From Candidatus Bathyarchaeota archaeon (GTDB taxonomy: Archaea; Thermoproteota; Bathyarchaeia; 40CM-2-53-6): a stretch of DNA of 64,000 nucleotides. A program made the translations under genes and the position numbers. The stretch is from positions 1,408,001 through 1,472,000 of the forward strand of contig CAVSBL010000002.1 in NCBI GenBank assembly GCA_963726255.1. Reading direction: 5' to 3'. The notes beneath the pieces were generated by a model that saw only the letters and a program-made list of their open reading frames with translations, was not told where the DNA came from and made no database searches. Below are positions 31,483 through 51,546 of this stretch, piece by piece; within the stretch, counting starts at the first letter, position 1, and the number at the start of each line of letters is the position of its first letter.

Positions 31483-31689
31483 CTATTGGACGACTTCGCC
31501 TATGGCGAATCGTGGACCAACGGAGTTGATCTTAACCTTCACGTGGTCGCCAGGTTTGGTTTGGGGAATGAAGACTACGAAGCCTTCGATCCTAGCGACT
31601 CCGTCACCGCGACGGCTCGTCTCCTTGATGTCAAGTTCGTATTCTTTACCTTCCTCAACTGGCTTGTTGAAGGAACGTTCAAAGCTCAT
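31483..31689 (-). CDS. Single TRAM-domain RNA chaperone
   Basis: KPVEEGKEYELDI...GDGVARIEGFVVFIP..KPGD.VKVKI; GAGGTGA SD upstream of ATG 31689. Confidence 0.9.
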   Translation of the reverse strand: MSFERSFNKPVEEGKEYELDIKETSRRGDGVARIEGFVVFIPQTKPGDHVKVKINSVGPRFAIGEVVQ

Positions 31690-31932
31690 GCATTTCACCT
31701 CATTCGGTTTCGTTCAGCTAGTTCTTCGGGAGAAAACAAGGACGCCAACGCGGATGGTTACGGAAGGACGTTCGCTTCAGCCCGTATACCTAACTGACGA
31801 ACACAGTAGACCCGAGGCTAATAACCCTGCTTGTTGCGGCTTTCGTGTGAGTCTTTCTCGGAAAAAAGAAACAGATGTAGCGAGCCATCTTCGCTGTATA
31901 GCTTTCTTGTAGAAGTAGGGTTGGGCTGTTCC

Positions 31933-32313
31933 TCAGCGCGCCTTCTCGCGAACCTCGAAATAGTGTCGGTATCCTTTCGCGTCCTCCTCGTAATCGTACT
32001 TCGTCTGCGTGCGCCGGTCAATGTACAAACCTGACCCAAGGTGATCCATCTGCATGTTTCTCATGCGAGCTGTCAACGCGTCGAGAATGTTCACGTAGTT
32101 CAGGCCCTCACTCGGTTTCCACTCTGTGACTGGGGAGGGCTCACTCATCGTTATGAGCTTCACGAAGTGTCGTGGAGAACGCTGTTCACTGTGGCCGCCT
32201 CGACAAGTAAAGAGCTTTGAGTCCATGAAATCATTGAATTGCTCATAGCTTCCGGCGAACTCAAACTGGAGGCCGCATTTTTGGCAGCAACACAAGAAGA
32301 CGCGATTTGACAT
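31933..32313 (-). CDS. Hypothetical Zn-binding protein
   Basis: CQKCG...CRGGH. Confidence 0.5.
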   Translation of the reverse strand: MSNRVFLCCCQKCGLQFEFAGSYEQFNDFMDSKLFTCRGGHSEQRSPRHFVKLITMSEPSPVTEWKPSEGLNYVNILDALTARMRNMQMDHLGSGLYIDRRTQTKYDYEEDAKGYRHYFEVREKAR

Positions 32314-32514
32314 GAGCCTCTATAGTCCGCCCACCTAATAGACTCCCCTATCAGCAATCGCACAGACTTCTTTGGACTGCCCCAGCGCATCACCAATACT
32401 CCATACCAGAACTGCCTCCAATTTTGGAATTGAAAAACCCAAGCGTCATTCAACCGAACACCGACGATGAACATTTGTTTACGAAGGCTGTGGAAACAAA
32501 GTTTGGCCGTGATA

Positions 32515-32704
32515 TGGCGGGCCCGCCGGGATTTGAACCCGGGACCCTTCCCCAAGAAGGCTTCTCAGCCGGTTTCTTTTCGGGTGGCTTCCCATGGGTT
32601 CGAAAAGCCCAGAGGTAAAAGCGTCATCGACACCAGTCTGGCGTCTCCGATGCTCTACCTTTTCAGGATCCAGACTTGAAAGGATCTGACTGAGCTACGG
32701 GCCC
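32515..32704 (-). tRNA. tRNA-Lys(UUU) with four introns (17/17a, 30/31, 37/38, 43/44)
   Basis: Removing 32661-32687, 32623-32646, 32586-32615 and 32548-32579 gives a 77-nt cloverleaf GGGCCCG TA GCTC AGTCAGGTA GAGC A TCGGG CTTTTAA CCCGA GGGTC CCGGG TTCAAAT CCCGG CGGGCCC G CCA; each intron has BHB-type pairing. Confidence 0.9.
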
Positions 32705-32756
32705 CGGACGCTCACAGCACGGTCCACTATCAAAAGCGTTTCGCAGGGACGAAGAT

Positions 32757-33698
32757 CTACGACGGTGCTTCCGCGAGAATCACGTTTACTTTGCCTCGGT
32801 CGGCTCCGCGTCCAAGCGAGAGTTCAAGGCTTTCCCCGACCTTTCTGTGCTGAATCGTATGCTGCAGGTCGTCCCAACTCTTCAGCAGCTTCTTATCAGC
32901 TTCCAGAATCACGTCGCCGGCCGACACACCGCTCTTGTTGGCAGGGCTTCCTCTACCGACTTTGACGATCAGCACTCCGTTCTCATGTGGGATATCATAC
33001 GATTCCGCGATATCCCTGTTCAGAGTTACCCCTGAGATTCCTAGGTACGGTCTGACAACTCGCCCGTTTTGTATAATCTCCTTCGCAATCATCCTAGCTG
33101 TATTGATTGGGATGGCGAAACCGATGCCCTGCGCAAAGGGTATGTTCGCAGTGTTAACGCCGATTACGGAACCCGCACTGTCAACCAAGGGGCCGCCGCT
33201 GTTCCCTGGGTTAATGGCTGTGTCGGTCTGAATCAAATCCTCATACATGTGATCTTCGATGTGTATGTGCCGTCTCAGAGCACTGACTACGCCAACGGTT
33301 GCCGTGGGGCCTGGAAGTAAGAAGCCGTACGGGTTTCCGATGGCGATGGCAATTTGCCCAACGACTAGGCTGTCCGAATCCCCCAACTTGACTTTAGGCA
33401 GGTCCTCGCCGTCAACGCGTACCACGGCGACGTCGGACGTGGCGTCCGAGCCTAGAACCTCTCCTTTGAATTTCTTGCCATCGGTTGTTACGACTTCAAC
33501 GCGGGATGCGTCTTCGACTATGTGGTGGTTGGTCAAGATTCCGCCGTTGGAATCGAATATTATTCCTGACCCTAGGCCACGGAGGGGTATGGTGTCGAAG
33601 AAATTCTCGCGAATCACCCGTAAAGTCGCCACAGACACTACGGCGGGGCTGACTCTCTCGATGGCAGCAATCACATCTTTCTCGGTACCTGGCAACAT
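32757..33698 (-). CDS. HtrA/DegP-type serine protease with PDZ domain
   Basis: LTNHHIV, SDVAVV, INPGNSGGPL, PDZ. Confidence 0.92.
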   Translation of the reverse strand: MLPGTEKDVIAAIERVSPAVVSVATLRVIRENFFDTIPLRGLGSGIIFDSNGGILTNHHIVEDASRVEVVTTDGKKFKGEVLGSDATSDVAVVRVDGEDLPKVKLGDSDSLVVGQIAIAIGNPYGFLLPGPTATVGVVSALRRHIHIEDHMYEDLIQTDTAINPGNSGGPLVDSAGSVIGVNTANIPFAQGIGFAIPINTARMIAKEIIQNGRVVRPYLGISGVTLNRDIAESYDIPHENGVLIVKVGRGSPANKSGVSAGDVILEADKKLLKSWDDLQHTIQHRKVGESLELSLGRGADRGKVNVILAEAPS

Positions 33699-33782
33699 TT
33701 TCTAGACCTCGAAGAAAATTGAAAGCGACAGCGGTCTATTTAATGACTAACCACAGAGACAATTAGACAAGAGGCGAACGAG

Positions 33783-33923
33783 ATGGATGATGCTAAGTAT
33801 TTCAAATGCGGAAAATGCGGTTACGAATTCCTATCCAAAACAGGCAACTCAACCTGTCCCAAGTGCAAGAGCCAAACGCTTGAGGAGAAAGACCTCAAGA
33901 GCTTGTTGGGGTTGGACGAATAG
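33783..33923 (+). CDS. Small zinc-ribbon protein (46 aa)
   Basis: Manual translation MDDAKYFKCGKCGYEFLSKTGNSTCPKCKSQTLEEKDLKSLLGLDE; below ORF-track cutoff. Confidence 0.7.
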   Translation: MDDAKYFKCGKCGYEFLSKTGNSTCPKCKSQTLEEKDLKSLLGLDE

Positions 33924-33995
33924 ACTCGGGACCATCCTCTCGAAACACACAAGCATTTGGTTAGCCTTTCTTGTAGAGGAGTGACGACCGCGGGT

Positions 33996-34099
33996 TGGCG
34001 CCCTTCGCCAGGAGAAGGCTAGCTGCTCCTTTGGGCGGGATTCGAACCCGCGTCGACGACGTGACAGGCCGTCATCCTAGACCACTGAACGACCAGGGC
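33996..34099 (-). tRNA. tRNA-Asp(GUC) with intron at 68/69 in the acceptor stem
   Basis: Removing 34004-34031 restores acceptor pairing GCCCTGG/CCAGGGC plus G73 and CCA (76 nt); anticodon loop CTGTCAC. Confidence 0.9.
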
Positions 34100-34312
34100 A
34101 TCGGCAACTCAGAAATCCCTGAGCCAGCTTAAAGCATTGCTACAGCATAGGCACTAGGCGCATCTTACTTGTGTAAGGATGGAATAAGATACGGACTCAT
34201 TGTCGACTATTCTCTTAACCATCGTCGCGCTGCTGATCCTCGTCCCAGTGATACTAGTCTACTTTCGTTTTCGTCAACGCCTACTGCAACGAATTCTCAA
34301 AAACTCCTGATC

Positions 34313-38794: not shown

Positions 38795-38909
38795 TGGCGG
38801 GCCCGCGGGGATTCGAACCCCGGATCCCAGGCTTTCGCCGCGAACGCTCCGAAGGCTTACACGAATCGGTTCCATCTCTGTGTCTTAATCCTGGCTCGAC
38901 TACGGGCCC
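38795..38909 (-). tRNA. tRNA-Arg(UCG) with two introns (29/30, 37/38)
   Basis: Removing 38857-38877 and 38834-38848 gives anticodon arm CAGGC CTTCGGA GCCTG; A20 present; GCCA end; 79 nt. Confidence 0.88.
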
Positions 38910-43461: not shown

Positions 43462-44025
43462 ATGGAGAACAGCCCCGCGCCCGTTCCTCAAGCCCCTTCA
43501 CAGACACAAGAAAAGCCACTGTTCACTCCCTGGAACGCCGTGTCCGACGGGCGTTTGGTCTACTTACCATACAAATCTGAACTCATGGAGCTACGAGACC
43601 GGGGGTTCGGCGAACTCAGAAAAGACAAGCTTCTCCTGTCTTCATACGAATCCTTCTACCTCCTAGAGAAACAGAAAATTCGCGTTTTCACCAAGAAAAG
43701 CAACCGGGAGTTAGAGCTTCGAGACCTTGTCCGGACATTTTCCGTCGGTAGACCCGAGATCTGGATAAAGTACTTGGTCTACAGGGACCTACGGGACCGT
43801 GGTTACATAGTTCGCGAGTCCACCAGGGCTTTCGATTTTGACATTTACGGAAAAGGGCCGCTAAGGCGATTAATCTCGATCGTATACGAGGGTGGCGAGG
43901 CAAGCCTCAGGAAACTGAGAGGACTACTTCAATATTCTGACAAGGAAAAGAAGGAACTGATACTAGCAGTTGTAGACCGACGCACAGACATAGTCTACTA
44001 TACGTTGAACTCGTTAAAGGTCTAG
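43462..44025 (+). CDS. tRNA-splicing endonuclease, structural (non-catalytic) subunit
   Basis: LSSYESFYL, KYLVYRDLRDRGYIV, ILAVVD...IVYY EndA fold; lacks the G-x-K-Y-G Tyr and the catalytic His. Confidence 0.8.
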   Translation: MENSPAPVPQAPSQTQEKPLFTPWNAVSDGRLVYLPYKSELMELRDRGFGELRKDKLLLSSYESFYLLEKQKIRVFTKKSNRELELRDLVRTFSVGRPEIWIKYLVYRDLRDRGYIVRESTRAFDFDIYGKGPLRRLISIVYEGGEASLRKLRGLLQYSDKEKKELILAVVDRRTDIVYYTLNSLKV

Positions 44026-51144: not shown

Positions 51145-51292
51145 TGGCGGGCCCGCGGGGATTTGAACCCCGGACTTCTGCACTGGCCTTCCAGTTCTAC
51201 AGCTTTTTCCGGGTGTTCCTTAGGGGGTTCGGCAACAATCTCCGCCTCTTTAAGCGGAGCCTGCCGCTCTATCCAACCTGAGCTACGGGCCC
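51145..51292 (-). tRNA. tRNA-Arg(CCU) with three introns (30/31, 37/38, 45/46); C at position 33
   Basis: Removing 51228-51260, 51205-51220 and 51176-51196 gives a 78-nt cloverleaf with GCAGC CCCCTAA GCTGT AGGTC; A20 present. Confidence 0.8.
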
Positions 51293-51382: not shown

Positions 51383-51546
51383 GCGGGGATACCCGAGCCA
51401 GGTCAAAGGGGCAGGACCACCAGCCCGCTGGTGGGGCCATACTTAAGATCAGAACTTGCCTTGGGCAAAGAGAAGGCATCCTGTGGCGTAGAGCCCACGT
51501 ATGGACGCGAAAGCCTTCAGGGGTTCGAATCCCCTTCCCCGCACCA
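51383..51546 (+). tRNA. tRNA-Leu(UAA) with introns at 30/31 and 37/38 and a probable third in the variable arm
   Basis: Removing 51416-51440, 51448-51477 and ~51492-51510/12 gives CAGGA CTTAAGA TCCTG, variable arm GGC-GTAG-GCC, A73 and CCA. Confidence 0.85.

Follow-up and report, generated by a model that had tools for sequence, protein, structure and literature searches.

A tRNA-Lys(UUU) gene with four bulge-helix-bulge introns in a Bathyarchaeia genome and a possible stepwise route to its maturation

The only tRNA-Lys(UUU) gene of a Bathyarchaeia genome (Candidatus Bathyarchaeota archaeon, assembly GCA_963726255.1) is located within a 64,000-nucleotide stretch of contig CAVSBL010000002.1, positions 1,408,001 to 1,472,000 of the forward strand, hereafter the window. 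It occupies window positions 32515-32704 on the minus strand and comprises, within 190 nt, five exons, four introns and an encoded CCA end (32517-32515). That this is a real four-intron gene we regard as close to certain. The best overall explanation, to which we assign a probability of roughly 0.6, is that all four are bulge-helix-bulge (BHB) introns that would be excised by a two-subunit EndA, with RtcB joining the exons, in a stepwise maturation of cutting, ligation and refolding.

The 5' end of the gene provides a typical archaeal acceptor and D-arm, and the 3' end the T-arm, the acceptor, the discriminator G and the CCA. Exon 1 (32688-32704) holds tRNA positions 1-17, exon 2 (32647-32660) positions 17a-30, exon 3 (32616-32622) positions 31-37 including the anticodon, exon 4 (32580-32585) positions 38-43, and exon 5 (32515-32547) positions 44-73 followed by the CCA, all on the minus strand; exons 3 and 4 are thus micro-exons of 7 and 6 nt. 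When the intervals 32687-32661, 32646-32623, 32615-32586 and 32579-32548 (27, 24, 30 and 32 nt) were cut out by script, the remaining 77 nt were identified by ARAGORN as tRNA-Lys(ttt). The canonical cloverleaf was restored: its four stems have 7, 4, 5 and 5 pairs, and no stem position is left unpaired. The unspliced gene was missed by standard finders: on the raw window ARAGORN reported only the tRNA-Asp gene at 34025-34100, and Rfam at gathering score reported that tRNA-Asp gene and 51148-51292. An uninterrupted Lys(UUU) anticodon arm had no match in the whole assembly, which is 98.5% complete with 9.3% contamination and carries the Lys gene on a 2.36-Mb contig.

A previous sequence-only reading of this DNA had proposed a tRNA-Lys(UUU) with introns of these four lengths at sites 17/17a, 30/31, 37/38 and 43/44, and with the central helices TCAG/CTGA, CATC/GATG, CTTT/GAAG and ACCC/GGGG, the last with one mismatch. 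The ARAGORN call on the spliced 77 nt, the orthologues and the covariation described below all agree with that identity; the sites and lengths proved correct throughout, and the four central helices are present as claimed, with the mismatch at A38.

The parse alone constitutes no proof, because our own intron solver yields thousands of formal parses (7314), and the case that the gene exceeds chance comes from the comparison among orthologues. The 190-nt sequence found a full-length match in 11 of the 22 same-genus genomes and a match from position 45 onward in 9 more. Of the 28 distinct orthologues that were parsed, 18 have intron 1, 25 have intron 2, all 28 have intron 3 and 26 have intron 4. 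In those that lack intron 1 (10), intron 2 (L054, L060 and L062) or intron 4 (L052 and L053), the exon junctions coincide exactly with the predicted joints. The sequence-only reading had allowed a 1-nt shift of the 43/44 boundary; L053, which has the same variable loop without intron 4, and the helix register both favour 43/44. Across 22 same-genus sequences, 72 of the 77 exon columns are invariant, as against 39 of the 113 intron columns; exon 1 varies only at position 16, and the anticodon-bearing exon 3 not at all.

Pairing is conserved along with sequence. Three introns lie between the two bases of pair 27-43, and none of the 28 orthologues has a mismatch there: 22 have T-A and the other 6 C-G. 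Of 811 alignment cells for the BHB helices, 93.5% are paired, compared with 37-50% when the partners were slid, and in 10 of the 42 BHB pairs both partners have changed; 500 shuffles never reached any of the five measures obtained (0/500). Upstream of the gene, a T-rich TATA-like box (32728-32735, minus strand, -31 to -24), preceded by an A-rich stretch, keeps its distance from the gene in each of the 22 orthologues compared, though the flanks diverge, and presumably acts as the promoter.

With exons near-invariant over 22 species, a compensatory pair 27-43, a conserved promoter-like box and no other UUU anticodon arm in the 98.5%-complete assembly, it is very improbable that the locus is a decaying pseudogene or relic, although a partial 3' copy, itself decayed, is found at another place in the genome (G000:C2:471313-471446), and two relatives have partial copies of this kind 1-2 kb downstream of their intact gene. 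The copy in the present genome (at about 8314-8447 of L119) and those of L058 (G020) and L059 (G011) span about position 52 to the 3' end and contain introns 3 and 4 and no 5' exon; the former is decayed in the anticodon loop, the T-stem and the acceptor. An origin of these copies as attachment-site duplications of an integrated element was considered and, at the copy in this genome, rejected: the five largest open reading frames around it correspond to a transporter, a peptidase, a hydrolase and two proteins without a family match, with no integrase among them. A split or permuted tRNA gene was likewise rejected, as the five exons are collinear within 190 nt and the partial 3' copies are decayed or have no matching 5' half.

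The orthologues also bear on a different parse of the same DNA, with three larger introns and the anticodon CUU. Such a parse (introns of 27, 44 and 43 nt, anticodon CTT) was ranked first by our solver, and ARAGORN in intron mode called the unspliced DNA a tRNA-Lys(ctt) with one 119-nt intron. Some of its exon bases, however, come from the intron 3 loop and from the 3' portion of intron 4, stretches that are variable among orthologues; it also throws out the invariant 7-nt and 6-nt blocks, and only one of its three motifs has an inner helix. Orthologues without intron 2 or 4, moreover, display the four-intron joints directly. We rejected this parse as contradicted by conservation, and it is scarcely conceivable that it is the correct one.

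In the standard BHB register, exon bases x-5 to x-2 pair with intron bases n-5 to n-2, leaving a 3-nt bulge on each side. All four introns of the Lys gene show the BHB motif on this register, which is consistent with all four sites, and the geometry is kept in the 28 orthologues. Intron 1 (32661-32687, minus strand, as are the other three; 27 nt, D-loop site 17/17a) has a central helix of 4 bp, an inner helix of 5 bp and an outer helix of 1 bp, and its motif has no nucleotide in common with the other three. Intron 2 (32623-32646; 24 nt, site 30/31) displays a strict, full motif, with a 4-bp outer helix formed by positions 21-24 and 32-35, a 4-bp central helix and a 7-bp inner helix, in which 5 of 6 inner pairs show compensatory changes. 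Intron 3 (32586-32615; 30 nt), at the canonical site 37/38, has the central helix C-G, U-A, U-A, U-G and a 2-bp inner helix followed by a hairpin; its outer helix amounts to only 1 bp as long as intron 2 remains. A T-loop-like hairpin in intron 3 was considered and dropped, its TTCGAA-like loop not being conserved across orthologues. Intron 4 (32548-32579; 32 nt, site 43/44) has a central helix of 3 bp plus the A38 mismatch, a 5-bp inner helix that leads into a 4-bp hairpin whose loop is GAGA, and an outer helix, marginal at 3 bp, built with the last three bases of intron 3. Two 3-nt bulges, a 4-bp helix and a flanking helix are available to introns 1, 2 and 4 in the primary transcript, and fully to intron 3 only after removal of intron 2.

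The motifs of introns 2, 3 and 4 abut across exons 3 and 4 (7 and 6 nt). The third bulge base of motif 2 is G31; positions 32-35 form the central helix of motif 3 and also contribute to the outer helix of motif 2, and positions 36-37 are bulge bases of motif 3. A38 serves both as the last bulge base of motif 3 and as the first, mostly unpaired, helix position of motif 4, whose helix continues through positions 39-41 and whose bulge takes up 42-43. Consequently, each base of exon 3 belongs to the motif of intron 2 or 3, and each base of exon 4 to that of intron 3 or 4. Of the anticodon stem, positions 27-31 lie in the central helix and bulges of the 30/31 motif.

The anticodon stem, normally the outer helix of the canonical site, cannot coexist with motif 2 or motif 4. 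The sequence-only reading had stated that the outer helix of the canonical intron needs the anticodon stem and that the 30/31 intron disrupts it; the location of positions 27-31 inside motif 2 upholds this. When intron 2 is present, intron 3 has an inner helix of 2 bp and an outer helix of 1-2 bp, whereas in the orthologues without intron 2 (3/3) the outer helix is the 5-bp anticodon stem. In out-of-genus orthologues that do have intron 2, the inner helix of intron 3 measures 1 bp in 3 of 3. According to a definition given in PMC3728597, a flanking helix must exceed two pairs. Intron 3, whose flanking helices contain at most two pairs before intron 2 is removed, does not on this measure qualify as a recognisable substrate up to that point.

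Energy calculations agree with a removal of intron 2 before intron 3, in direction only. The local energy of motif 3 changes from -6.1 kcal/mol in the precursor to -12.7 kcal/mol after removal of intron 2, the corresponding medians for 14 four-intron genes being -9.5 and -13.5. Motif 2 gains stability from the presence of intron 3 (-17.5, as against -13.1 without it), and motif 1 is constant at -10.3. Whole-molecule folding covered all 15 splicing states, and only the direction of its numbers, not their size, was used: intron 3 was the least accessible intron and was relieved after removal of intron 2. Removal of intron 4 left the accessibility of intron 3 almost unchanged, and for this reason the precedence of intron 2 over intron 3 is the only structural dependency that is supported. 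By helix length, an order is indicated for intron 3 relative to intron 2, weakly for intron 4 and not for intron 1. Overall, we lean slightly towards a removal of intron 2 before intron 3.

The sequence-only reading had gone further, in that the helix of the 43/44 intron was to compete with the anticodon stem for nt 38-41 and all non-canonical introns were to be removed first. As to the competition, positions 39-43 do lie in the helix or bulge of motif 4, but removal of intron 4 barely helps intron 3; introns 3 and 4 compete by refolding, without need of a fixed order. As to the precedence, what stands is intron 2 before intron 3, by helix length, whereas intron 1 is independent and intron 4 need not precede the canonical intron. 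A strict "must" is not established, because the minimal cores can coexist and an EndA of this type cuts relaxed motifs in Aeropyrum pernix, and it is distinctly doubtful that all non-canonical introns are obligatorily removed first.

Several observations weigh against a stepwise maturation of four BHB introns. The four minimal cores (central helix, bulges and inner helix) are mutually compatible, and a broad-specificity EndA cuts relaxed motifs (PMC3241643). In whole-molecule folding, the motif of intron 3 lies 13.8 kcal/mol above the ensemble even as the last intron left; this model cannot rank orders, because motif 3 is disfavoured even alone. The cause of the penalty is a pairing of the D-arm with the 5' part of intron 3, and this pairing is not conserved in orthologues. 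Free RNAalifold prediction on the alignment recovers the acceptor stem, the helices of intron 2 and the central helix of intron 4, but not the motifs of introns 1 and 3; it folds intron 3 onto the T-arm instead. Being composed of invariant exon bases, the outer helix of intron 2 is without covariation support, and the central helix of intron 4 is mismatched in 19 of 26 sequences. Three metatranscriptomes, each representing a small share of the stretch (5-9% of sampled words), were compared with window positions 31500-34200, where reads matched the region of the neighbouring gene and 32 nt of the conserved 3' exon; they contained no joints and no intron coverage, are uninformative on splicing and are neutral either way.

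Some of these points would equally suit a real four-intron gene with unordered splicing, in which EndA recognises each minimal core independently and any order is merely kinetic. The cores share no paired base except A38, the position of the frequent mismatch in intron 4. The EndA of this genome is a two-subunit enzyme with the specificity loop, and in A. pernix that type cuts D-loop introns and relaxed motifs (PMC3241643). In the precursor, intron 3 still has its 4-bp central helix and the local stability of -6.1 kcal/mol. Set against this, no flanking helix of intron 3 exceeds two pairs before removal of intron 2, two enzymes could hardly bind neighbouring sites of abutting motifs together, and cutting introns 2 and 3 together would free a 7-nt exon paired only to an excised intron. 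We hold unordered splicing to be unlikely, though a serious competitor. Stepwise maturation is favoured in that cycles of cutting and ligation would be more plausible than simultaneous cutting, because a micro-exon would otherwise stay paired only to the excised intron.

The genome encodes the enzymes that such a maturation would employ. Two EndA paralogues are present, both with PF01974 and PF02778. The catalytic one (188 amino acids; G000:C2 about 748246-748812, outside the window) matches the A. pernix catalytic subunit at 7.7e-41 with the Tyr/His/Lys positions kept, and its Lys-Pro-Lys aligns to K44/R46 of the Crenarchaea-specific (specificity) loop. In A. pernix, this loop confers the cutting of D-loop introns and relaxed motifs (PMC3241643). 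The second paralogue, encoded within the window (43462-44025, plus strand), has 187 amino acids, is without the catalytic histidine and is likely a structural beta subunit; its gene lies about 11 kb from the four-intron Lys gene. From their sequences, the two paralogues are predicted to form an EndA of the two-subunit, broad-specificity type able to cut non-canonical sites. RtcB is represented by a 521-amino-acid open frame that matches PF01139 with 571 bits over its full length.

On this basis, we propose the following course of maturation. Transcription would probably proceed from the TATA-like box about 27 nt upstream. An (alpha-beta)2 two-subunit endonuclease would cut at the 3-nt bulges, and RtcB would join the exons. 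With the 30/31, 37/38 and 43/44 motifs arranged head to tail, the transcript would mature by steps of cutting, ligation and refolding. Intron 1 could be removed at any time, and introns 2 and 4 would be presented already in the primary transcript, while the canonical intron 3 would become a proper substrate only once intron 2 is gone and the anticodon stem has formed. Neighbouring introns could not be cut simultaneously without release of a micro-exon. The splicing order, as well as transcription and splicing themselves, we infer from the DNA sequence.

Public records with the same gene are titled as metagenome-assembled genomes of Candidatus Bathyarchaeia or Bathyarchaeota, apart from a few contigs in bacteria-labelled bins, and the named relatives are soil, peat and wetland genomes. 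Among the 26 loci there were 20 full genes, 1 partial copy only and 5 chance pattern matches. Of the order's 105 species genomes, 40 matched a pattern with introns 1 and 2 obligatory and 30 a pattern with introns 3 and 4 obligatory. Both patterns coincided at one locus in 13 of the 105 genomes: 12 of the 23 of the genus (the present genome included) and G033, from another family. All these counts are lower bounds, since the exon sequences are fixed in the patterns. Within this one genus of 23 species, 12 have intron 1 and 9 lack it. In another family of the order, the Lys(UUU) gene L064 (G026:C42) seemingly has an extra intron in the acceptor/D region, its 5' acceptor being broken before the D-stem.

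Other tRNA genes of the genome are interrupted as well. Our BHB/cloverleaf solver produced many false solutions on long regions and misparsed the Lys gene, tRNA-Arg(CCU) and class II tRNAs; intron counts are accordingly given only where orthologues support them, together with gene lengths. A second gene with four introns (30, 20, 21 and 31 nt) encodes tRNA-Pro(GGG), with an encoded CCA, at G000:C2:979121-979301 (L065) on the minus strand. The D-loop contains two of these introns, the variable loop a third, and the remaining one lies at about 30/31; all four have central helices of 4 bp and inner helices of at least 4 bp. The gene has a full-length match in 17 genus relatives, the exons are invariant in the 15 parsed by exon pattern, and the first intron is absent from two sister genera. 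Within the window, tRNA-Arg(CCU) (51145-51292, minus strand) contains introns of 33, 16 and 21 nt at 30/31, 37/38 and 45/46, which delimit 7-nt and 8-nt exons in the same layout of 30/31, 37/38 and variable-loop sites as in the Lys gene; its canonical motif has 2 central pairs only, which is in keeping with an ordered removal of introns in such a layout. In this genome, position 33 of this tRNA is C in place of the near-universal U, and over 22 loci examined by pattern it is C in 18 matches and T in 3.

Lengths extend the picture to the whole genome. For 29 CCA-ended tRNA 3' ends a matching 5' acceptor was located, at lengths of 75-187 nt with the Lys gene the longest, apart from one candidate whose only partner, at 428 nt, is dubious; of the 28 genes with a credible 5' partner, 27 are at least 90 nt long. 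Rfam found 17 tRNAs in the assembly at gathering score and 32 at E<=10. Nearly all tRNA genes of this genome appear to be interrupted, as in soil Asgard archaea. The window itself holds at least four tRNA genes: Lys, Asp and two Arg. The second Arg gene, at 38798-38909 on the minus strand, was read by the solver and by ARAGORN as a putative tRNA-Arg(UCG) with two introns (21 and 15 nt). Beside tRNA-Arg(CCU), the plus-strand region 51383-51543 extends over 161 nt from a matching 5' acceptor to a CCA-ended 3' end and probably represents a multi-intron class II tRNA; the Leu(UAA) parse that the solver gave for it was discarded as unreliable.

The Lys(UUU) and Pro(GGG) genes of one genome indicate that four introns can be reached and kept across species. 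Genes of this kind escape standard finders, so that tRNAs will be under-reported in genome surveys of these archaea, which are abundant in soil and sediment. With 190 nt and eight cut sites, the Lys gene offers a compact natural substrate on which a broad-specificity endonuclease and RtcB could be confronted with competing motifs and very short exons. The presence or absence of each intron among relatives provides material on the gain and loss of archaeal tRNA introns, and the polymorphism of intron 1 within one genus, if true, would be a natural series for either process.

Several published systems resemble the Lys gene. Archaeal tRNAs are described as having "up to three" introns in one review (Kanai 2015, PMC4390854), which lists among the three-intron genes of Thermoproteales the Pyrobaculum calidifontis tRNA-Glu(UUC) and the P. 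islandicum tRNA-Pro(UGG) (Sugahara 2008 as cited in PMC4390854). These share with the Lys gene several BHB introns at canonical and non-canonical sites, a host with a two-subunit EndA and the failure of standard finders to detect them. The Lys gene differs in having four introns, with three motifs abutting across 7-nt and 6-nt exons. Thermoproteales are hyperthermophiles, whereas the host of the Lys gene belongs to a Bathyarchaeia lineage with soil, peat and wetland relatives and is no hyperthermophile. We tentatively suggest, with somewhat less than even confidence, that the Lys gene departs from earlier cases in its four introns above "up to three", its micro-exons made of nothing but motif, an RNA-encoded programme of cutting, ligation and refolding, and a canonical intron licensed by the removal of its neighbour.

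In the red alga Cyanidioschyzon merolae, the BHB of the anticodon arm was in every case the final substrate seen by reverse transcription PCR (PMC3728597), in line with the order proposed for the Lys gene. Both systems have multiple BHB introns, and the C. merolae order, anticodon-arm intron last, correlated with motif stability according to the same source. In contrast to the Lys gene, whose motifs share bases and whose order is only inferred, the C. merolae genes are eukaryotic nuclear genes, their motifs fold independently according to the authors, and their order was shown experimentally. Soil Asgard archaea offer a further comparison: according to PMC11291895, Atabeyarchaeia and Freyarchaeia have 228 tRNA introns in three genomes, with 92-95% of tRNA genes interrupted, often at non-canonical sites, and over half with several introns. 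They are, like the present host, wetland-soil archaea with intron-rich tRNA sets, but belong to another phylum; four or more introns per gene may be tabulated in Supplementary Data 4 of that paper. A four-intron archaeal tRNA gene, or tRNA introns of Bathyarchaeia, were not found in the main texts consulted, and supplements may list such genes.

The ordering idea is not new, as the stepwise formation of BHB motifs is already in print. The description of tRNAscan-SE 2.0 (PMC8450103) mentions two or three introns so close that one sometimes must go before the second BHB forms. Its iterative detection rests on the same mechanism as the order proposed by the sequence-only reading, but concerns two or three introns and includes no case study. 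In summary, the mechanism that we propose for the Lys gene is the known BHB/EndA/RtcB pathway, and its intron count and concatenated layout exceed the published cases found, in degree only.
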